Positions 16,394 to 25,993 of a stretch of 64,000 nt of DNA are shown piece by piece. Position numbers and translations under genes: made by a program. The notes under the pieces were generated by a model. The model was not told the origin of the DNA. It searched no databases and was given only the letters and a program-made list of their open reading frames with translations. Each line of letters starts with the position of its first letter. Position 1 is the stretch's first letter. The stretch comes from Candidatus Thorarchaeota archaeon (lineage in GTDB: Archaea > Asgardarchaeota > Thorarchaeia > Thorarchaeales > Thorarchaeaceae), in the NCBI GenBank assembly GCA_046758445.1, contig JBHIAE010000003.1:1-64000 (forward strand). The letters are read 5' to 3'.

Positions 16394-17110
16394 CTATCTC
16401 TCAATGGCAGGCTCGACTTCTTCGGAGAGCTCCTCATCTTCCTCCGGAGTGGGTGGAGGCAGCATCTTCACCCAAATCACTTGCTTCTCGTCCATCCAGA
16501 TGTCGATGAATGCTCTGGCATAAAGATGTAGCAGAGCAAACAAGACACGGACTATCTCTCTTCTGGTGTTATTCATTAGGATGTCCACGAACTTGGCGGT
16601 TTCATCGATCTGCATGATCTTGGAGAGGTCATCAAAGACCTCAGCAATGTTCTCCTCCACGTCTGCCCTTGTAGCCTCCACTTGGAAGGAAAGTGGGTCT
16701 GCTCTGGACCTGTATCTCTTCCTCCTCGGAGTTGGACGCCGACGAACGCCCTTGCTGAGCACCCTATCCATAGCTATCAGTAGCTCTTCAAGGGTGACTC
16801 GTTGATTGCTGATCCTGAATGGTGGTCGAATCAGAGGGATAACAAGCTCTTCGTCCTTGTCTTCATCTGGTGGGAGGAGTCCCAGCTCAATGAGCTCCCT
16901 CGTCTTCTTCATGAATATTACAGAGGCTGAATACAGTGCACTCCCTGAGATCCGAAAGTCGATGTCCCCCAGGCGTCTCATCTCACGGAGGAATCCGGAC
17001 ACGAGCTTACCGATGTCGACATTCCATGGTTGAACCTTGTCTAGCTGAAGCACATCAGTGAGCAGAATATAGGGTGGTGCGGCCCAGAAAGGAGATCTCT
17101 CATCGTTCAT
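16394..17110 (-). CDS. scpA: Segregation and condensation protein A (kleisin)
   Basis: PWNVDI..L, DFRISG.AL..AS, VTLEEL..A, F.ALL.L; lies between smc and scpB. Confidence 0.88.
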   Translation of the reverse strand: MNDERSPFWAAPPYILLTDVLQLDKVQPWNVDIGKLVSGFLREMRRLGDIDFRISGSALYSASVIFMKKTRELIELGLLPPDEDKDEELVIPLIRPPFRISNQRVTLEELLIAMDRVLSKGVRRRPTPRRKRYRSRADPLSFQVEATRADVEENIAEVFDDLSKIMQIDETAKFVDILMNNTRREIVRVLFALLHLYARAFIDIWMDEKQVIWVKMLPPPTPEEDEELSEEVEPAIER

Positions 17111-20100
17111 GCCGTCGATGCCACCTCCTCTAGATCCACTGACACGATTCTGGAGATGCCGTCCTGATTGGACACTCCAATCAGAAGGTCTGCCTTTCGC
17201 ACAGTCGTGTCTCTCAGAGAAACTACTATGAACTGTGATGACATCGACATCTCTGAGATCAAGTTTGCTACATTGTGAGCATTGACATCATCCAGAGCTG
17301 CATCAATCTCATCCAAGACGTAGAAGCTTGCAGGACTATACATCTGGACTGCAAAAATGAGCGCGAGTCCAGTCAAGGTCTTCTCTCCACCACTCATTGC
17401 ATCCAATGTCACCAGCTCCTTGCCTTGTGGCTTAGACCTGACAGTGATTCCGCCCATCAACGGATGCTCAGGGCTCTCTAGCATCAATGTTGCCTCTCCA
17501 CCCGGGGAGAGCTTGGCAAACACCTTTGCGAAGTTGTCCGCTATGTCATTGTAGACCTGCAGAAACTTGCGAGTCTTCTCGGCCTCAATCTCCTCCATGA
17601 AGGCTAGTATCTCTTTATGCTCTTCCTCTAGTGCCGTCTTCTTATCGACAATCTCCTCGTACCTCTCCTTCTCAAGGTCATAGTCAGTCAGTGCCTTGAG
17701 ATTCACAGGGCCGAGGGCCTCAAGCTCTCTCTCGAACTCCTTGATCTTGTCATCGAAGGCATCGATCTCCTTGTAGGTGAGTTCTCTCTCTTGTGTCCGC
17801 TTGGCGAGCTCCTCACTGGAGTCCGCTAGTTGACCGAGTTCTGCGGTGAGTCCTACTATGTCAGTTTCAAGGCGTGAAAACTCTGTCTGAAGACGGTAGA
17901 CTGCTTTCTCATTTGCAGTCTGCTCTTCTCTTATCTCCTCGTGACGCAGTCTTAAGTTACGAAGTTTCTCCTTCAATTCTAGTTGATATACCCGCTTGTC
18001 CTTGACAGCCTCTTCAATTCTCTCCCTCTCCTCCTTGAGTTTGACAAAGTCCTCCTCCTTCCCAGTCAACTGCTCCTGCAGGAGTTTCACCTCATCCTCC
18101 AAACCTGGGAGGACAGTATTGATTGTCTGGAGGCGTTGCTCAAGCTCGACAAGTTTGGGCTTCAGTCTCTCATCCATTGCAACCTTCAAAGAGGTTATTT
18201 CGCTTGTGAGTGCCTCCCGTTCTTTCTTGTGGTGCTCTAGCACCTCTTTGAGATCCTTCAGATACTGGCTGAGCTTGGCGGTGTCTGACTTTGCAAGTGT
18301 TTCATTTGCATCATCACGCTGGCTCCTCACTGTTTCCCTGTGTGCGGTGAGCTCATCGTCCCGTTCTCTCAGGCTTTCAATCTGACTCTCCAGCTCGCCA
18401 GTGGTCAGTTGTGCCTTGTTGATCTTCTCTTTCAAAAGTCCCGTCCTGTTCTCCTTCTCCTCAAGACGTTCCTCAAGACCCTCAAGCTCCAGTCTTGCCC
18501 TATAGTTGCTCCTGGACAGTCCCTGAAGTTCAAGGTCAATCTTGTTCTTCTTTGTACGGAGTTCTTCCTGCTGTGCGACGAGCCCAGCGAGTATCTCCTC
18601 AAGACCCTGAAGCTTCCTCTCGATTTCAGGACTTGTGTCTTCTACCTGTAGTGAGAGCCCCGTCATGCCCTTGTAGTAGTGGCCTCCTGTGATTAGACCA
18701 GAACGCTCAACAAGGTCCCCCTCGAGCGACACCGATCTCCATCCCTTGAAGCCGATGGTCTTGGCGGTCTCGAAGTCCTCCGTGACAACAGTGTCTGAGA
18801 ACACGAACTCGAATGCCGGGCGCATTTTGGAGTCAAACTCGACCAAGTCTATGGCAAGACCGATTATTCCTTTGCCTTCGGGAACCTTCTTCGCTCGCTT
18901 GGTGCTGATTCTGTTTAGCGGAATGAAGGAGGCACGTCCTACCTTCTCAATCTTCAGGACATTGACACATTTCGTAGCGACCTCATCTTCTTCCACCACG
19001 ATATGTGAGAGTCTATTGCCTCCGGCCACCTCCATGGCCGTCGCATACTCGGGGTCTATCTTTCCAAGTTCGGCTACCGTGCCAAAAATGCCGCCTATGG
19101 TTCCTGAGTCTCGAAGTTCGAGAACCCTGGCGATTGCGCGTCTTCTCTTCAGAAAGGCCTCTTCTGCATCTCGAAGGGCATCCTGTCTTGCTTGAACGCG
19201 AATAAACTCCTCTCTTGTGTCCTTGACAATCTTGGCTGTTTCCGCCACCTCTGCGTCCACAGTCTTCAGACGATCCTCGATTCGCTCAACTTCGTTCTGG
19301 CTGCCCTCTTCCTTTTCTTCAGACTTTTGGAGTCTCTCTCGTTTGACGGGGATAATTCGTCTAAGCTCTGAGAGCTCATCATCTGTCTTTTCAAGTAGTT
19401 CGCTGGAATCACGCAGTTCTTCATACAACATACCGAGTTCTTTGCCGTCTGTCTTGATTGCTGAGCGGACCTCTGACACACCCTCGTCGAGCGCTCTCAT
19501 CTGATTGTTGAGGTCCTGGAGACGTTGTGTCATCTCAAATGTTTCAGCCTGTTCCTTCTCGATTTTGTCTTCTAGGGACGCCATCTTGTTTGTGCAACTC
19601 ACAATCTCCTCGTCAAGTCTGGAAAGTTCCTGTATCTTCTCATCAGTCAGGGCGCCAGAGCCACTGACCTGACCCTCAATTGACTGGATCTCCACCTCTA
19701 TTGACTCACGGTCTGCCAGGCTCTTCTCATACTCTATTCTTACACGCTCGAGATCACCCCTCGCATGGTCTACTGCAGCGGACACAATTCCGTATTGCTC
19801 TGAAACTCTCGCAGAGTCGCCGCCCGTGATAGTGTCAATCTCTTGGTCTATACCTTCTATCTCCGCGTCCGCATTTCTGGTCCCTTCTTCGACTTCGACC
19901 AGTTCTCTGCTAAGCCTCTCCGCTTCCTCTGTTCTTTCTGCAAGGGTCTCGTGAATAGTTTCAATCCTACTCTTTCCCTTGATGGTTCGCCATGCCAGGC
20001 TATCAATCCTCACGCTCTTAATCTGGTCGTTGAGTTTTTGATGGCGCAGGGCATCCCCTCTCTCTTCCTCAAGTTTCTCAAGTTGACGACGTCGCTCCTG

Positions 20101-20697
20101 GAGTTGCATGTCAACCTTCCCTAGGTTCGACTCACTCTCTGCCAGCTTCTTCAGGGCCCTTTCCTTCTGCTCATCATAGGCAGATATCCCAGCTATGTCT
20201 TCAATCAGCTTGCGGCGATCATTCGGACTGACCTTCACAATCTGTGCTATCTCTCCCTGAAGAACAAGATTGTAACCATTGGGGTCCACACCAATGGCTC
20301 CTAACACTTCCAGAACAGTGCCTCTTGTTACAACCTTCCCATTGATTCGACAGGTTGACTTACCTGTGTCGTCGAGCTCTCTCTCAATGACGACCCTGTC
20401 AGTGTCTACCTGCAACTTCCGGTCTTTGTTGTCAAAGTGAAGCTCGACATGTGCAGACTTGGCCTTGGGGGGCATATCGGGCTTCGGAGGCGAATACAGT
20501 AGGTCCGAAAAGACATTTGCTCGCAGGGTCTTTGCACTAAGCTGGCCTAGGACGAAGAGAACTGCGTCAACTACATTTGACTTGCCGGAACCGTTTGGTC
20601 CGACTATGCATGTGAAGCCGGGACTCAGCCTAACCGTAACATTGTCTCGGCCGAATGACTTGAAGCCCTTACAAACAAGCTTGTCAATGTGGACCAA
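17107..20697 (-). CDS. smc: Chromosome segregation ATPase SMC
   Basis: GFKSF, GPNGSGKSN, coiled coils, hinge, MSGGEK, LDEIDAALD. Confidence 0.97.
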   Translation of the reverse strand: MVHIDKLVCKGFKSFGRDNVTVRLSPGFTCIVGPNGSGKSNVVDAVLFVLGQLSAKTLRANVFSDLLYSPPKPDMPPKAKSAHVELHFDNKDRKLQVDTDRVVIERELDDTGKSTCRINGKVVTRGTVLEVLGAIGVDPNGYNLVLQGEIAQIVKVSPNDRRKLIEDIAGISAYDEQKERALKKLAESESNLGKVDMQLQERRRQLEKLEEERGDALRHQKLNDQIKSVRIDSLAWRTIKGKSRIETIHETLAERTEEAERLSRELVEVEEGTRNADAEIEGIDQEIDTITGGDSARVSEQYGIVSAAVDHARGDLERVRIEYEKSLADRESIEVEIQSIEGQVSGSGALTDEKIQELSRLDEEIVSCTNKMASLEDKIEKEQAETFEMTQRLQDLNNQMRALDEGVSEVRSAIKTDGKELGMLYEELRDSSELLEKTDDELSELRRIIPVKRERLQKSEEKEEGSQNEVERIEDRLKTVDAEVAETAKIVKDTREEFIRVQARQDALRDAEEAFLKRRRAIARVLELRDSGTIGGIFGTVAELGKIDPEYATAMEVAGGNRLSHIVVEEDEVATKCVNVLKIEKVGRASFIPLNRISTKRAKKVPEGKGIIGLAIDLVEFDSKMRPAFEFVFSDTVVTEDFETAKTIGFKGWRSVSLEGDLVERSGLITGGHYYKGMTGLSLQVEDTSPEIERKLQGLEEILAGLVAQQEELRTKKNKIDLELQGLSRSNYRARLELEGLEERLEEKENRTGLLKEKINKAQLTTGELESQIESLRERDDELTAHRETVRSQRDDANETLAKSDTAKLSQYLKDLKEVLEHHKKEREALTSEITSLKVAMDERLKPKLVELEQRLQTINTVLPGLEDEVKLLQEQLTGKEEDFVKLKEERERIEEAVKDKRVYQLELKEKLRNLRLRHEEIREEQTANEKAVYRLQTEFSRLETDIVGLTAELGQLADSSEELAKRTQERELTYKEIDAFDDKIKEFERELEALGPVNLKALTDYDLEKERYEEIVDKKTALEEEHKEILAFMEEIEAEKTRKFLQVYNDIADNFAKVFAKLSPGGEATLMLESPEHPLMGGITVRSKPQGKELVTLDAMSGGEKTLTGLALIFAVQMYSPASFYVLDEIDAALDDVNAHNVANLISEMSMSSQFIVVSLRDTTVRKADLLIGVSNQDGISRIVSVDLEEVASTA

Positions 20698-20894: not shown

Positions 20895-21260
20895 CTAAGT
20901 CAACATCCCCAACAAGGCGCGCTTAAGGGCCATCCTCACTAATCCCATGGATTCACGCGCACCTTCTCCTGCAATGCCTGCCAATACAAGTTTCACGTCC
21001 CCTAGAATTGCGATATAGCCATTGTCAGTGGCGATTGTGACTTCTTTCAGCCCTCCTTTGTCAAGTCCACTGGCAAGCTGAGACGAGTTAGCAGCAATCT
21101 TGACGGAGAGATTCGCGATATCAGAGTGTTTGATCCCCCCTGAAATGGTATGCCCGAAAATCACTTTGCCCTTTGCATCACAGACGACGATGCCTTGTAG
21201 ATCCTCGTTGGAAGCCATTGTGTCGGCCACAACTTTCTCAATCTTCTTCTGATCAACCAC
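20895..21260 (-). CDS. Roadblock/LC7 domain protein
   Basis: GIVVCD.KG.V, L.KG.L.EVTI.T.NG pattern, C-terminal MGLVR helix. Confidence 0.8.
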   Translation of the reverse strand: MVDQKKIEKVVADTMASNEDLQGIVVCDAKGKVIFGHTISGGIKHSDIANLSVKIAANSSQLASGLDKGGLKEVTIATDNGYIAILGDVKLVLAGIAGEGARESMGLVRMALKRALLGMLT

Positions 21261-21434
21261 TTTGACATATCCTCCAAAGATGCCGATGCACGTCTTCTTC
21301 TGTCTGGTACTTGATGTGTTTATATCTTATGTGTTGGTGGGTCTTCCGGACACATCGCTTAAGAGCACTTTTCGTAGCTTAGTTTTTAACCTCAAATGTG
21401 AACCTAGCGCCAAGACTTTTGGAGTCGATTATGA

Positions 21435-23066
21435 ATGCCTATGCTGAGAACTAGTTCGGAGGCTTTTCCAGCCTCCAAGGAGGTCATGAAGGACCTCCCA
21501 TACGTCTTGCGTGTCGAGTTTGGCGACTTGGCGCGGGACGTCACCAAGATCGTCGGCAAGCCGATAGCTTGTCACAAATGCAATGGCTTTCTTCTCAGTA
21601 CAGATCAAATTGTGGAAGACGAGAAGGTTGGAAAGCACTTCGTCTGTCCATTCTGTAGTACTTTGAATGTGATTGAAGGAGAGATTGTTGTCGCTGGTGA
21701 CGATACTGACTTCGTACTGAAGCTGCCGCCTGAAGAAACAGAAGCCGACACTGAAGCCATCTCAACAGGTGGCCGGTCGTTTCTGGCACTGATCGATGTT
21801 TCTGGGTCAATGGCCGGTGAAAACCTGGCTGCTGTCAAACGCAGCCTTAGTACTTCTATTGACAGTCTTGCTGCAAACTCCCCAGACACTATGTTCGGCC
21901 TGATTGAGTTTGAGAGCTCAGTTGTCTGCAGGAACTTAGAAACCGGTGAACCAATCGAGCTTCCTAGAGAGTCGTTTGCAAGTCTAGAAGCAATAAAGGA
22001 CTCCACAAAGCGTATCTTGGACAAGATCAAGATGGTCAATGTTGGCGAGAAGGCAAGGGACCTGAAACAACACGTGACCGCCCTGAGAGACCAAGGTGGT
22101 ACGGCGTTGGGTCCTGCGGTCGCCATGGCCTATGTGATATCAAAACATCGCGATGTCGGGCGTGTGGTCCTTCTCACTGACGGACTTGCTAATGAGGGCA
22201 TTGGTGCCCTTGAAGGGTTCCAGGTGACTCCTGCAGGCAAGTTCTACGAGGGCCTTGGAGATGACTTCAGGAAGCTCGGTACCGCCTTGGACGTGGTTGG
22301 GATAGCATCCGGCGCAGGAATGGAGCTCAAGACTCTAGGCCTATTGCCCGAGGCCACAGGCGGCACAATGTACTACGTGACACCCAATGAGCTAGACAGA
22401 AGCCTGTCAGAGCTTGCAGGAGCCTCACTTCTCGGTCGAAACGTCGAAGTCAAGCTGATAACGCCTGCTGGGGTCAAGGTGAAAGACGCCTCCGGAGCCT
22501 CCAGAGCTGTGCTTGAGGAGCTTACGAAGAAGAGTGAGGGCAAGATTGGTGTTGTAGGTGGGGACCACGAGCTCTACTTTGAGATCGAGCCCAAGAAGAG
22601 AATCAAGGAAGAGGAAGTGCCGATACAGGTCCAAGTGGCCTACACTGATGAAGACGGCGCCAGAAGAGTCCGTGCTGTCACAACGAAGCTTCGTGTGGCA
22701 AATAAGGAGGACGAGATCATGAAGACTCTGGACCCGACCGTTGGCGCGACCTTTGTGACACAGAAGGCAGGTGAGGATGCAGTCAGAGGTGACAGAACAA
22801 AGGGCAAGAAACGCCTTGAGTCCTTCAGGTCCGCAATGAAAGCACGTTCAAAGGCTGCACCAAAGGCTGTCCAATCTATGCTTGAGAAGGCCGATCGCGC
22901 TCTTGAGAGGGAGGAAGAGGAACTGGAGGTTCAAGAGGCACGAATGGAGGCCGCTCCTGCCGCTGGTCGAGCTCCCTCGGCCGCAGCTGACATGTCTGCA
23001 GTGGAGAATCTTGCTCAGATGAAGAGAAGCTCGAAGAAGATGTTCGATGACGAGGATGAAGAATAG
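21435..23066 (+). CDS. Sec23/Sec24-like zinc finger plus vWA domain protein
   Basis: CHKC...F.CPFC...N zinc finger, MIDAS DVSGS, GGTALG, LTDGLAN, beta-sandwich and helical C-terminus. Confidence 0.75.
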   Translation: MPMLRTSSEAFPASKEVMKDLPYVLRVEFGDLARDVTKIVGKPIACHKCNGFLLSTDQIVEDEKVGKHFVCPFCSTLNVIEGEIVVAGDDTDFVLKLPPEETEADTEAISTGGRSFLALIDVSGSMAGENLAAVKRSLSTSIDSLAANSPDTMFGLIEFESSVVCRNLETGEPIELPRESFASLEAIKDSTKRILDKIKMVNVGEKARDLKQHVTALRDQGGTALGPAVAMAYVISKHRDVGRVVLLTDGLANEGIGALEGFQVTPAGKFYEGLGDDFRKLGTALDVVGIASGAGMELKTLGLLPEATGGTMYYVTPNELDRSLSELAGASLLGRNVEVKLITPAGVKVKDASGASRAVLEELTKKSEGKIGVVGGDHELYFEIEPKKRIKEEEVPIQVQVAYTDEDGARRVRAVTTKLRVANKEDEIMKTLDPTVGATFVTQKAGEDAVRGDRTKGKKRLESFRSAMKARSKAAPKAVQSMLEKADRALEREEEELEVQEARMEAAPAAGRAPSAAADMSAVENLAQMKRSSKKMFDDEDEE

Positions 23067-23075
23067 CCAAAGCAC

Positions 23076-23118
23076 GAGTGATGTCGGCCAAGAGCCGCGT
23101 CACTCAACTTCCTTTTTG
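23076..23118 (+). terminator. Hairpin plus T-tract after the vWA gene
   Basis: GAGTGATG/CGTCACTC and CGGC/GCCG stems followed by CCTTTTT. Confidence 0.45.
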
Positions 23119-23259
23119 ACGTCAATTGTTCAACTCAAATGCGCAAAAGAATGCGCAAACGAGCTATTTTGTGCCTAGAACATCTCCATAAGTCTAAAAT
23201 ACCCAACTGCGGCGTTAGGATTTGTCAAATGCACTTTTGACAGCAGCGGAGACTCTACC

Positions 23260-23550
23260 TTGATTAGCCAAGAGAAACTCAAGGGCATCATCGACCGTCT
23301 CAAGACACAGGACGGTGTCCGTGGGGTCGTCGTTACCACCATGGAGGGCCTGCCCCTGAGTAGCGACCTAGACCCGGAAACCACCGAGAATGTCGCTGCA
23401 ATCATAACCTCTCTCGTGGGAAAAGCACTGGACACGGTGCGTCTACTACGTGAGGGGGCGTTGTCGTTCCTTACACTGGACACAACACAAGGTCAAATAA
23501 ACATCGCACCCGATGAAAAAGAGGGCCTGATATTAGTGGTCCTCAAGTAG
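23260..23550 (+). CDS. Roadblock/LC7 domain protein
   Basis: GVRGVVV.T.EGLPLSS, ENVAA, short 96-aa form. Confidence 0.9.
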   Translation: MISQEKLKGIIDRLKTQDGVRGVVVTTMEGLPLSSDLDPETTENVAAIITSLVGKALDTVRLLREGALSFLTLDTTQGQINIAPDEKEGLILVVLK

Positions 23551-23575
23551 AAGTAGTGTGAATGGGGTTGTAACC

Positions 23576-24046
23576 ATGAGCGATCCGAAAGCGTTCGACA
23601 GAATCCTCACGGAGATCATAAGGCAGGACAAGGGAATCAAGAAGGTAATCCTAGTAGACAAGACTGGTCTGACAATTGCCAACGTGAGCAAGCTGTCGTA
23701 TTATCCAGTTGATGTTGACAGCATAGGTGCGATTGCAAGTGCCGTGTTCTGTGCTAGCGAGGAGCAGGGCAAGAACCTCCAGATTGGTGAGCTGGAGATT
23801 GTGACCTCAGAGTTCTCAGAGGGCAAGATCTTTGCTTCGGCTTGTGGAAAGGGTGTACTCTGTGTCGTGTCTGAGGCTGAGGTCAATATCGGACTGATAC
23901 GCCTCGTCATGAAGAAGCAGGGTGTGCAGCTGGCCAATGAGCTAGACAAGTTCCTGGCAGTGGAACCCCTCACTCCGTCCGACAAGGACAAGGAGATTGA
24001 TGAGGAAGATCTGAAGTCAGCTCTGGCAGAGCTCGAGAGAGTCTAG
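23576..24046 (+). CDS. Roadblock/LC7 (MglB-like) protein with acidic C-terminal helix
   Basis: VILVDKTGLTIA, IGAIAS, V.IGLIR, C-terminal EEDLKSALAELERV. ATG at 23576. Confidence 0.88.
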   Translation: MSDPKAFDRILTEIIRQDKGIKKVILVDKTGLTIANVSKLSYYPVDVDSIGAIASAVFCASEEQGKNLQIGELEIVTSEFSEGKIFASACGKGVLCVVSEAEVNIGLIRLVMKKQGVQLANELDKFLAVEPLTPSDKDKEIDEEDLKSALAELERV

Positions 24047-24190
24047 TTCCAACGCAGACTCCCTCAAACAGCCCCGATTGTGCCACAAAGGCTTTTATGA
24101 GACCACACTTCTAAGTCATCAGCCCCCTGAGCAGGGCTTCTGTCTAGGGACCTGAGGAGCAAGAGCAGTGACGCAGCGAGGTGAACCGCG

Positions 24191-24754
24191 ATTCGGAAAG
24201 ACGACAAAGGGCGCATCCATCTGAAGCTAGTCTTCTACGGGCCATCTCTCGGAGGCAAGACGACAGCTCTCCGATGGCTCTATGGGAAGGTTGAGGGGCT
24301 TCAGAAGGGAGAGTTCACTGCTATCGAAGATGAAACGAACCGTACTCTGTTCTTTGACTATGTCCCCATGAGTGCGGGAGGTCGGGTGCTCTTTGACGTC
24401 TTCACCGTGGCCGGCCAAAAGCGCCACAGGCACCAGAGGAAGGTCGTGCTTCAGGGTACTGATGGAATACTATTTGTTGCGGACTCGTCACCCGATCAGA
24501 GGGATGAGAACACAGAGAGCTTCGAGGAGCTAAAGCTCTTTCTGGGCGATGGACTGGGACGAGAGATTCCAATAGTTGTCATGTTGAACAAGCGGGACTT
24601 GCCGAACAGGATGTCACGAGATGAGATGCTCGACCTGTTAGGTCTTGGAGGCAGTGTACCAATCTACGAGACCATTGCAGTTCAGGGCGTAGGAGTTAAG
24701 AGAGCGTTTCAAGCCATAGCCCGGGAAGTAATTCTGAAGAGAATGTACAAATGA
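24191..24754 (+). CDS. MglA-type small GTPase (probable ATT start)
   Basis: The reading frame extends upstream of ORF 24368: KLVFYGPSLGGKTT (G1), RTLFFD (G2), TVAGQ (G3), NKRD (G4). In-frame TGA at 24182; SD-like GAGGTGA before ATT 24191. Confidence 0.88.
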   Translation: MRKDDKGRIHLKLVFYGPSLGGKTTALRWLYGKVEGLQKGEFTAIEDETNRTLFFDYVPMSAGGRVLFDVFTVAGQKRHRHQRKVVLQGTDGILFVADSSPDQRDENTESFEELKLFLGDGLGREIPIVVMLNKRDLPNRMSRDEMLDLLGLGGSVPIYETIAVQGVGVKRAFQAIAREVILKRMYK

Positions 24755-24773
24755 TATCTACCAGGTGAAGCCA

Positions 24774-25145
24774 ATGGGAGAGACCCGCGGAGACACATTG
24801 GAAGGCGTTCTTAACGAACTACAAGGGAGCATTCCCGAGGTTGAGGCTTGTGCAATAGTGAGTGTCGAGGGGCTTCCAATTGTTTCAGCCTTGCCGACTG
24901 ATGTGGATGAAGCAAAGGTCGCTGCCATGACTGCTGCAATGCTTACTATTGGGGAGAAAGCAGCAATAGAGCTCGGAAAAGGAAACCTAGAGCAGGTCAA
25001 TATCAAGGGTGTGGATGGCTGGCTACTGGTCATCCAAGCTGGGTTGAACGCATGTCTCACTGTTTCTACTACCGCTACTGCCAAGCTTGGAATGGTCTTT
25101 CTCGAGATGAAGAGGGCTGCCGAGAAGGTTTCTCAGATGATATAG
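24774..25145 (+). CDS. Roadblock/LC7 domain protein
   Basis: AIVSVEGLPIVS, VAAMTAAML.IGE.A..ELGKG.L.QV.IKG. SD AGGTGA then ATG 24774. Confidence 0.92.
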   Translation: MGETRGDTLEGVLNELQGSIPEVEACAIVSVEGLPIVSALPTDVDEAKVAAMTAAMLTIGEKAAIELGKGNLEQVNIKGVDGWLLVIQAGLNACLTVSTTATAKLGMVFLEMKRAAEKVSQMI

Positions 25146-25225: not shown

Positions 25226-25993
25226 GTGAACCTTGCAGGCCCCGTCTACAGACTATACGAATATGTCTTACACAGGCAGCTGCACAAAGACAAGGCTCCT
25301 CGCCACGTTGGAATAATCCTTGACGGGAATCGCCGCTATGCGAGGCAGCACGGCCTTGAAGTTCCCTGGTTTGGACACCAAAAGGGTGCACAGAAGGTAA
25401 TGGAAGTGCTAAGGATCCTGTGGGAGGCTGGAGTGAAGGTCTGTACACTCTACGCATTCTCCGTTGAGAACTTCCAGAGAAACCCTGACGAAGTAAATGA
25501 GATCATGGCCATTGCAAGGGAGAAGTTCAGCGAGGTCGTTGGGAACCCTGACGTCCACAAACACAAGGTCCGCATAAAGGCAATTGGCCGAGTCGATCTT
25601 CTTCCAGAGGATGTTCAACAGGCCATCGGCCAGGCTGAGGCCGAAACTGAGAACTACAGCGAGCATATTCTGAATGTGGCCATAGGATACTCTGGAAGAG
25701 CAGAACTTGTAGATGCGGTACAGGCAATCGGTGAGAAGATTCGAGAAGGCACGCTTGACCCATCAATGATCGATGAGGAAATAATCGAGCGTCACCTGTA
25801 CACGAATGGTGTGCCTGACCCTGACTTGATAATTAGGACATCCGGCGAGGAACGCCTCTCCGGCTTCCTTCTCTGGCAGTCAGCATATTCTGAGCTCTAC
25901 TTTGCACAGATATACTGGCCTGCAGTAAGAAGGATTGATATCTGGCGGGCACTACGGTCCTATGCTCGGCGATCACGTCGATTTGGCGAGTGA
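25226..25993 (+). CDS. uppS: cis-prenyltransferase (polyprenyl diphosphate synthase)
   Basis: HVGIILDGNRRYA, YAFSVENF.R, YSGR.E, DLIIRTSGEERLSGFLLWQ. Confidence 0.96.
   Translation: MNLAGPVYRLYEYVLHRQLHKDKAPRHVGIILDGNRRYARQHGLEVPWFGHQKGAQKVMEVLRILWEAGVKVCTLYAFSVENFQRNPDEVNEIMAIAREKFSEVVGNPDVHKHKVRIKAIGRVDLLPEDVQQAIGQAEAETENYSEHILNVAIGYSGRAELVDAVQAIGEKIREGTLDPSMIDEEIIERHLYTNGVPDPDLIIRTSGEERLSGFLLWQSAYSELYFAQIYWPAVRRIDIWRALRSYARRSRRFGE

Follow-up and report, generated by a model that had tools for sequence, protein, structure and literature searches.

The 64,000-nucleotide window analysed here (positions 1 to 64,000, forward strand, of contig JBHIAE010000003.1, assembly GCA_046758445.1, from a Candidatus Thorarchaeota archaeon) contains at 20895-25145 a cluster of six genes encoding four Roadblock proteins (RblA, RblB, RblC and RblD), an MglA-family small GTPase and a Sec23/24-like protein with a vWA trunk (Sec23L). 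This company raises the question whether Sec23L is a working part of the GTPase switch next to it, as expected of a proto-coat, or a later arrival in an older gene neighbourhood. All six genes, first picked out in a sequence-only reading of this DNA, were recovered in place from the list of open reading frames (ORFs) and by Pfam, with RblA divergent and Sec23L, RblB, RblC, the GTPase and RblD following in this order and in the same orientation. Comparison of the locus across Asgard archaea makes it probable that the cluster has two layers, namely an old, Asgard-wide switch of MglA with four Roadblocks, and Sec23L, which lodged later in the RblA-RblB spacer of one Thorarchaeota family. The genes and their flanks are as follows.

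20895-21260, minus strand: RblA, divergent Roadblock of 121 amino acids (aa), transcribed towards smc-scpA and away from the other cluster genes (Pfam, hhalign, synteny)
21435-23066, plus strand: Sec23L, Sec23/24-like protein of 543 aa (Pfam, AlphaFold2, Foldseek)
23138-23201, plus strand: promoter-like block 5' of RblB (conservation among relatives)
23260-23550, plus strand: RblB, short Roadblock of 96 aa (Pfam, solved relatives)
23576-24046, plus strand: RblC, MglB-like full-length Roadblock, given in the ORF list from a GTG at 23558 (Pfam, solved relatives, model)
24191-24754, plus strand: MglA-family small GTPase of 187 aa with a predicted ATT start (PDB relatives, motifs, aligned starts)
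24774-25145, plus strand: RblD, full-length Roadblock, given in the ORF list from a GTG at 24765 (Pfam, solved relative 7f8m)
16394-20697, minus strand: scpA and smc, conserved flank downstream of RblA (ORFs, Pfam ScpA, recurring adjacency)
25226-25993, plus strand: uppS, cis-prenyltransferase, conserved flank downstream of RblD (Pfam Prenyltransf, 260 bits)

The genome, a metagenome-assembled genome of 3.25 Mb (92.7% complete), contains 14 Roadblock matches, four of which fall within the 4.3 kb of the cluster. Because of this concentration, and because the arrangement recurs in several Asgard classes, the clustering of Roadblock and GTPase genes is not due to chance. In particular, RblA divergent from RblB-RblC-MglA-RblD-UppS was found in Thor-, Jord-, Baldr-, Frey- and Hodarchaeota, with the RblA orthologues holding the equivalent position in all five. 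The adjacency to smc-scpA recurs in Thor-, Jord- and Freyarchaeota and in families f2, f12 and f19, and uppS adjoins the module in nearly all loci examined, those of other classes included (here and below, labels in G, L, g and f denote genomes, loci, genera and families of the comparison set). Since the four Roadblocks travel with the GTPase across Asgard classes, they are very likely its dedicated partners. Roadblock and small-GTPase families have been counted among the core Asgard genes by Liu et al. (bioRxiv 10.1101/2020.10.19.343400), who described other neighbourhoods (ESCRT; LAMTOR1-like/Rab-like/DENN). Asgard Roadblock structures were solved by Tran et al. (2024; PMC10933270), who also predicted that strain MK-D1 has MglA-like GTPases. 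They report that GTPase and Roadblock genes of this strain generally lie outside shared operons, and that in Asgard archaea gene order is a poor guide to the pairing of GTPases with their regulators; the present module is an exception. No description of the MglA/four-Roadblock block was found in the literature searched; the conserved multi-Roadblock MglA module is a new form of a familiar type of switch, and the Sec23/24-like protein was already known.

The position of Sec23L was surveyed in 80 named public loci and scored where both flanking Roadblocks held. In 42 Thor-type loci it occupies the RblA-RblB spacer; it is missing from this spacer in two further loci of the Thor order (the Thor isolate A361, labelled G019, and a same-order relative), and is likewise missing in seven of the seven loci of other classes (Baldr-, Jord-, Frey- and Hodarchaeota) with both flanking Roadblocks. 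In G019, G025 (same order) and G035 (another family), the module and smc-scpA are intact around a short RblA-RblB spacer, and Sec23L is encoded on another contig. The module of G090 (Jordarchaeia) is without Sec23L, as is that of G046, from which RblA is also missing. In six other Asgard families Sec23L is unlinked from the cluster as well, and its off-locus orthologues (31-45% identical) have unrelated neighbours, among them glycosyltransferase, prenyltransferase, TauE, DUF998 and OsmC genes. The window's own Sec23L escaped a bulk family search of 251 genomes, so that the counts of that search are lower bounds and are used for no claim of absence.

The sequence-only reading had made the vWA protein the effector of the GTPase, and the whole a candidate proto-coat or positional module, and it had itself named unlinking of the vWA gene in relatives as the sign that would speak against this; outside one Thorarchaeota family, the synteny of Asgard genomes gives exactly that sign. 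What stands of the proposed module, on the strength of deep synteny, is MglA with its four Roadblock partners, and what finds no support is the role of Sec23L as effector or proto-coat. Within the family, the whole stretch of about 15 kb from scpA to the downstream genes is collinear, so that linkage there says little. A natural deletion points the same way: in G018 (96% complete) the spacer (L047:6085-6171) retains only the last ~29 codons of Sec23L, with the module intact and the GTPase 96% identical, and neither the Sec23L query nor a Sec23_trunk family search found a second copy in this genome. A quick tree of Sec23L groups the Thor-family copies into a single clade and places the off-locus copy of A361 near the unresolved base of that clade; because the Thor-family copies group in this way, a single move into the cluster in this family is suggested. 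As a separate observation, locus L134 (JBHLLF010000035.1), labelled Hermodarchaeota, carries the cluster with a 99% identical GTPase and a Thor-like Sec23L, and is probably mis-binned Thorarchaeota DNA.

The DNA between Sec23L and RblB was also compared. Two exact AATGCGCAAA repeats (23138-23159), 12 nucleotides apart, stand upstream of a TATA-like TCTAAAATA (23193-23201), and TTGCGCAA-type repeats together with TCTAAAATACCC are kept upstream of RblB in genomes with Sec23L in the spacer, in the G018 deletion and in G019. Because the block is conserved with Sec23L, with its deletion and without it, RblB and RblC most likely keep an ancestral promoter, as judged from conservation, and Sec23L would most likely form its own transcription unit. 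The TTGCGCAA-type site, conserved in most relatives, is a candidate regulator-binding site. The AATGCGCAAA repeat has no exact occurrence and no enrichment elsewhere in the window, and therefore no regulon can be claimed.

The best solved relatives of the GTPase are the MglA proteins of Thermus and Myxococcus (E 5e-38, 133 bits), with Arf following at about 1e-11, and by these matches and its motifs it is assigned to the MglA family, in agreement with the initial proposal of an MglA-type GTPase with its own arginine in RTLFFD. The motifs are GPSLGGKTT, NRTLFFD (R51), TVAGQ (T72 and Q76) and NKRD. T72 of TVAGQ replaces the Ras aspartate, and both T72 and Q76 are invariant among 17 orthologues, as is the FFD aspartate of strand beta2 (D56 of LFFDY). 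The switch I arginine R51 is kept in 16 of the 17, with a phenylalanine in the G046 orthologue. In the last helix, K170, R171 and R178 are invariant or nearly so. The protein consists of the G domain only (187 residues) and has no C-terminal Roadblock domain according to Pfam and the motif alignment. Its identity within the order is 84-99%, and with or without Sec23L it hardly varies.

The start of this gene deserves comment. An open frame covers 24185 to 24754 and contains no ATG, GTG or TTG ahead of the P-loop; the ATT at 24191 aligns exactly with the start codon of 13 orthologous loci, five of which use ATG, three GTG, two TTG, two ATT and one ATA. The ribosome-binding site before the start is GAGGTG-like in most of the 13 and a related purine-rich sequence in the rest; in the interval 24182-24193, the ATT is preceded by AGGTGA. 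As this codon aligns with the relatives' start codons behind a conserved ribosome-binding site, translation is predicted to begin at the ATT and to yield 187 residues. On the same grounds, the possibility that the gene is broken for want of a canonical start was rejected. A highly conserved MglA GTPase thus tolerates, or makes use of, weak non-canonical initiation.

The four Roadblocks are distinct from one another in their matches. RblA just misses the Pfam cut-off (Robl_LC7 22.2 bits, cut-off 23; LAMTOR5 22.4 bits), and it aligns to a profile of RblD orthologues with 94.5% hhalign probability over 112 columns (E 7.7e-8), which identifies it, at profile level, as a true Roadblock. RblB (Robl_LC7 55.6 bits) has as best solved relatives 7f8f (E 2e-24) and then eukaryotic DYNLRB (E 3e-12), matches by which it is classed as the short RBLC7 or dynein-light-chain type, without a C-terminal helix; the length of 7f8f (94 aa) and the description in the paper suggest that this entry is the Odin-RBLC7 structure of Tran et al. 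(2024). The best solved relative of RblD (Robl_LC7 57.5 bits) is 7f8m, 'Roadblock from Thorarchaeota SMTZ1-45' (E 3e-22), a score that suggests a paralogue. The ATG at 24774 is a likelier start for RblD than the listed GTG at 24765, because the latter falls inside an AGGTGA ribosome-binding site.

RblC (Robl_LC7 37.7 bits) is the most conserved of the four. Its ATG at 23576 is likelier to be the start than the listed GTG at 23558, because a relative has a stop codon upstream of the position of this ATG. The closest solved sequences are Myxococcus xanthus MglB and then LAMTOR2, and the predicted structure consists of a full Roadblock core (alpha-beta-beta-alpha-beta-beta-beta-alpha), a disordered linker and a helix at residues 143-155, with LAMTOR2, MK-D1 Roadblock3 and MglB at similar scores in Foldseek. 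The last 13 residues, (D/E)(D/E)LK(S/A)AL.ELE(R/K)V, are kept across Thor-, Jord-, Baldr- and Freyarchaeota; together with the terminal helix of the model, they bear out the acidic C-terminal helix that had been read on one of the Roadblocks. RblC thus combines the features of an MglB-type protein, a full Roadblock fold and a gene beside mglA with conserved adjacency. An acidic C-terminal helix on RblC and a basic last helix on the GTPase are both present, as in the Myxococcus type, and we infer that the two dock.

Sec23L has the domain order C4 zinc finger, vWA trunk, beta-sandwich and, in the model, helical tail, with Pfam matches to Sec23_trunk (43.3 bits, cut-off 27), Sec23_BS (33.2 bits, cut-off 33.5) and, weakly, zf-Sec23_Sec24 (17.3 bits). 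The full MIDAS (metal ion-dependent adhesion site; D121, S123, S125, T223 and D249) and the four cysteines of the zinc finger show no variation among 20 orthologues. An intact MIDAS distinguishes the protein from eukaryotic Sec23/24 trunks, in which the site is not known to be complete. In a Foldseek search against the PDB with an AlphaFold2 model built from 20 orthologues (pLDDT 86.8, pTM 0.88), ranks 1 to 46 were taken up entirely by chains of Sec23 or Sec24 (E about 5e-27, TM 0.6-0.73); a bacterial vWA protein and Sulfolobus ArnB followed (together 8s05, 5a8j and 4fx5; E 1e-13 to 1e-15). The predicted fold is accordingly that of Sec23/24 rather than a generic vWA fold; the initial description of the vWA protein as Sec23/24-like holds, and its placement among generic vWA proteins, named beforehand as the contrary outcome, was not observed. 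The same description had a full MIDAS and no gelsolin domain, and both points are confirmed, since Pfam finds no gelsolin domain and the model ends, at residue 543, in helices. Helices occupy residues 434-537 after the beta-sandwich of the model, with no Pfam match to Sec23_helical; a helical domain is counted as present in Asgard Sec23-like proteins (PMC11914678).

A single Sec23_trunk gene was found in the 92.7%-complete genome of the window, and relatives have one full copy each; Sec23L is not one of a Sec23/Sec24 pair of paralogues. The one-contig genome G004 carries, besides its full gene, a second, truncated copy (G004:C1:931703-932242, L028) that covers residues 1-180 and is 87% identical. 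The family has already been published (PMC11914678, Nat Commun 2025), and the orthologue of SMTZ1-45 is deposited as 'SEC24 family transport protein'. Asgard Sec23-like proteins were reported there to lack a gelsolin domain and the Sar1-contact residues, and to have bound an Asgard Arf weakly and in a nucleotide-insensitive manner (PMC11914678).

An exhaustive profile search with Sec23L returned 4533 relatives at E <=0.001. The best ones outside Asgard archaea are eukaryotic proteins of greater or similar length (E about 1e-64). Two of those checked (P0166 and P0169) are annotated 'circularly permutated Ras protein 1-like' and have an N-terminal Ras domain; others checked (from a stramenopile, a choanoflagellate and Entamoeba) are without it. 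No Sec23/24 of canonical length was evident among the best 150 matches, ten of which were checked by Pfam. By sequence, the closest eukaryotic relatives of Sec23L are identified as proteins of the circularly permuted Ras (CPRas) type, alongside stand-alone zinc-finger-vWA proteins of protists. The architecture that Elias and Novotny described for CPRas has the circularly permuted Ras domain fused in the same chain, in a protein of unknown function (PMC2430557).

These relatives lend some weight to an alternative that we consider possible but unlikely, namely that Sec23L works with a different small GTPase (Arf-, Rab- or Ras-like) and lies beside MglA by coincidence. CPRas proteins, with their N-terminal Ras domain, offer a cis arrangement of this kind among the closest non-Asgard matches. 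Moreover, in G056 an Arf/Ras-like GTPase is encoded 126 nucleotides upstream of Sec23L on the same strand, and a Rab/Ras-like GTPase is found two genes upstream in genus g17; the GTPase genes near off-locus Sec23L in the Loki-like family f9 are at L060:5794-6465, L061:4835-5365 and L062:4350-4874. However, those Loki-like genomes hold 60-89 Ras-family matches each (about 2% of genes), and a GTPase within two genes in two of about nine independent off-locus lineages is not significant (P ~0.16, a rough estimate). The seven remaining off-locus lineages have no GTPase neighbour, and the CPRas precedent is weakened by the unknown function of these proteins.

Equally improbable, in our estimate, is a GTPase-independent role for Sec23L as a scaffold of the ArnB type, in which an acidic or phosphorylated partner would be bound at the MIDAS, in the manner of the ArnA-ArnB pair that regulates motility genes in Sulfolobus. 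Next after Sec23/24 in the structural ranking come ArnB and related vWA proteins (8s05, 5a8j and 4fx5), and the MIDAS is invariant in 20 of 20 Asgard orthologues. ArnB shares the vWA, beta-sandwich and helical layout, with a zinc finger supplied by ArnA and a metal in the MIDAS (PMC12852372). Sec23/24 chains nevertheless match far better (5e-27 versus 3.5e-15), and no gene for an FHA-domain protein or a kinase was present among the neighbours checked by Pfam.

The last alternative, that Sec23L is a GTP-dependent effector or coat-like adaptor of the neighbouring MglA, with the Roadblocks as GTPase-activating protein (GAP) and scaffold, can appeal to an adjacency stable in 42 Thor-type loci, to the Sec23/24 fold and the binding of Sar1 by eukaryotic Sec23 (Bi et al., 2002, as cited in PMC11914678) and to the Ras domain fused to its closest eukaryotic relatives in CPRas (PMC2430557), but it is quite unlikely in view of the unlinked gene in A361, a same-order relative and six other Asgard families, the collinearity that makes linkage in the family little informative, the intact module in the G018 deletion, the promoter-like block that RblB has of its own, a GTPase that is almost invariant regardless of Sec23L, the missing gelsolin domain and Sar1-contact residues, and the weak, nucleotide-insensitive binding of Asgard Arf (PMC11914678). 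In the narrower form in which Sec23L would have been recruited within the Thorarchaeota family as such an effector of the older switch, we give it only a slim chance. If it were true, the family would offer a living example of a small GTPase with a Sec23/24-fold adaptor from before the gelsolin-based GAP and the duplication into Sec23 and Sec24.

The preferred reading, an old MglA/four-Roadblock switch in which Sec23L is a later neighbour, has to accommodate some observations that count against it. The stable adjacency in the 42 loci of the family may reflect a functional link acquired there, and some GTPase link for the Sec23L family is plausible from the Sar1 precedent, CPRas and the two Loki-like genera. 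In addition, some relatives have unrelated genes inside the module, either separating RblC from the GTPase or separating the GTPase from RblD, and the module is therefore a conserved neighbourhood and not a tight operon. Inserts of this kind lie at L031:4548-6434, L032:3483-5800 and L036:10185-10973; as read from their sequence only, they encode a 293-aa protein with a hydrophobic N-terminus (membrane-like), a TetR-family regulator beside a cysteine-rich protein, and a 154-aa zinc-ribbon-like protein. Taken as a whole, the adjacency makes Sec23L a candidate partner of the switch and is not evidence for a coat module.

A working scheme for the old switch can be drawn by analogy with bacterial MglA/MglB. 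RblC would dimerise with a second long Roadblock, most likely RblD, and the RblC-containing dimer would bind one GTPase asymmetrically, acting as a GAP by positioning Arg51 and Gln76 of the GTPase itself and contributing no arginine finger. Through its acidic C-terminal helix, RblC may dock on the Lys/Arg-rich last helix of the GTPase and tune nucleotide exchange, as MglB does through its Ct-helix; this is proposed because the RblC tail and K170, R171 and R178 are conserved, which matches the co-variation described by Baranwal et al. (PMC6785124), in whose work a pocket at the basic alpha5 of MglA is the binding site for the acidic MglB Ct-helix, and the two helices co-vary. A second dimer, with the part of a scaffold or adaptor and comparable to MglC or LAMTOR4/5, could be formed by the short RblB, perhaps together with RblA. 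As output, spatial or positional signalling would be most likely.

Among characterized systems, the cluster is most readily compared with MglA-MglB(-MglC) of M. xanthus and Thermus thermophilus (3t12, 6izw and 6h5b). The two have in common the GTPase family, with TxxGQ, the intrinsic arginine and the FFD aspartate; a Roadblock encoded next door, with a tethered acidic C-terminal helix that has its counterpart in a Lys/Arg-rich last GTPase helix; and extra Roadblock paralogues (MglC in Myxococcus). They differ in that four distinct Roadblocks, known here from their genes, imply heterodimers in place of one MglB homodimer, in that one Roadblock is of the short dynein-light-chain type, and in that the host is archaeal, the gliding or type IV pilus context being absent and the cluster lying beside smc-scpA and uppS. 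With Ragulator-Rag (LAMTOR1-5, RagA/C), the module shares several distinct long and short Roadblocks serving small GTPases, and RblC matches LAMTOR2 structurally as well as it does MglB. The cluster GTPase is, however, not of the Rag type and has no C-terminal Roadblock domain, and no LAMTOR1-like tether was recognised in the cluster by Pfam; membership of the four Roadblocks in Ragulator was rejected on account of the GTPase type and the missing LAMTOR1-like protein.

For Sec23L, the likeness to the COPII components Sec23/Sec24 with Sar1 concerns the overall fold and the domain order, probably up to the helical domain. In contrast to them, Sec23L has no gelsolin domain and hence no GAP arginine, is encoded by a single gene and keeps its MIDAS, and the GTPase encoded beside it is of the MglA type and not of the Sar1/Arf type; the neighbours that were examined included no Sec13/31-like gene. 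CPRas (PMC2430557) has the C4 finger, vWA/Sec23 trunk and beta-sandwich in common with Sec23L (profile E about 1e-64), and differs in the circularly permuted Ras domain of the same chain, which is absent from Asgard Sec23L. The published Asgard Sec23-like proteins (PMC11914678) agree with Sec23L in zinc finger, trunk, beta-sandwich and, as modelled, helical parts, in the absence of gelsolin and in Sec23/24 as best structural match. Gene neighbourhoods are apparently not treated in that paper, in which the words neighbor and operon are absent; the position of Sec23L in the Thorarchaeota MglA-Roadblock cluster and the invariance of its MIDAS are added here.

These comparisons bear on how the locus should be used. 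The Sec23/24-like gene has often been taken to hint at a proto-coat in Asgard archaea, and its place next to a GTPase switch, probably a late feature of one family, should not be mistaken for an ancestral coat module. Of more use is the finding of one MglA with four distinct Roadblocks, in at least five Asgard classes and beside smc-scpA and uppS. With its five proteins, it offers a defined set on which to test how an MglB-type GAP could have given rise to multi-Roadblock regulators such as Ragulator, and structures are already solved for close relatives of two of the Roadblocks.

A minor observation concerns the RblC genes of some relatives. The Jordarchaeia RblC (RPF2, Jordarchaeum madagascariense) is interrupted by a frame-breaking insert of 31 nucleotides (L069:7743-7773, minus strand, identical in L138; also L135), and the RblC of G035 by one of 29 nucleotides at the same codon (L046:7113-7141, minus strand); all 84 other loci, including the gene of the window, are free of inserts. 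They look like candidate bulge-helix-bulge mRNA introns in an Asgard protein gene. We know of no precedent in protein genes besides the crenarchaeal cbf5. The intron of that gene (PMC2738675) was the only one returned by the literature search. When paired by hand, the flanks of the inserts can form a helix, a 4-nucleotide bulge, a helix of 4 bp, a 3-nucleotide bulge and a further helix, the distance from bulge to bulge being equal to the length of the insert. In the textbook form of the bulge-helix-bulge motif the cuts fall inside the bulges; if made symmetrically after the second nucleotide of the bulge, they would restore PVD(I/V)DG, as found in the uninterrupted orthologues.

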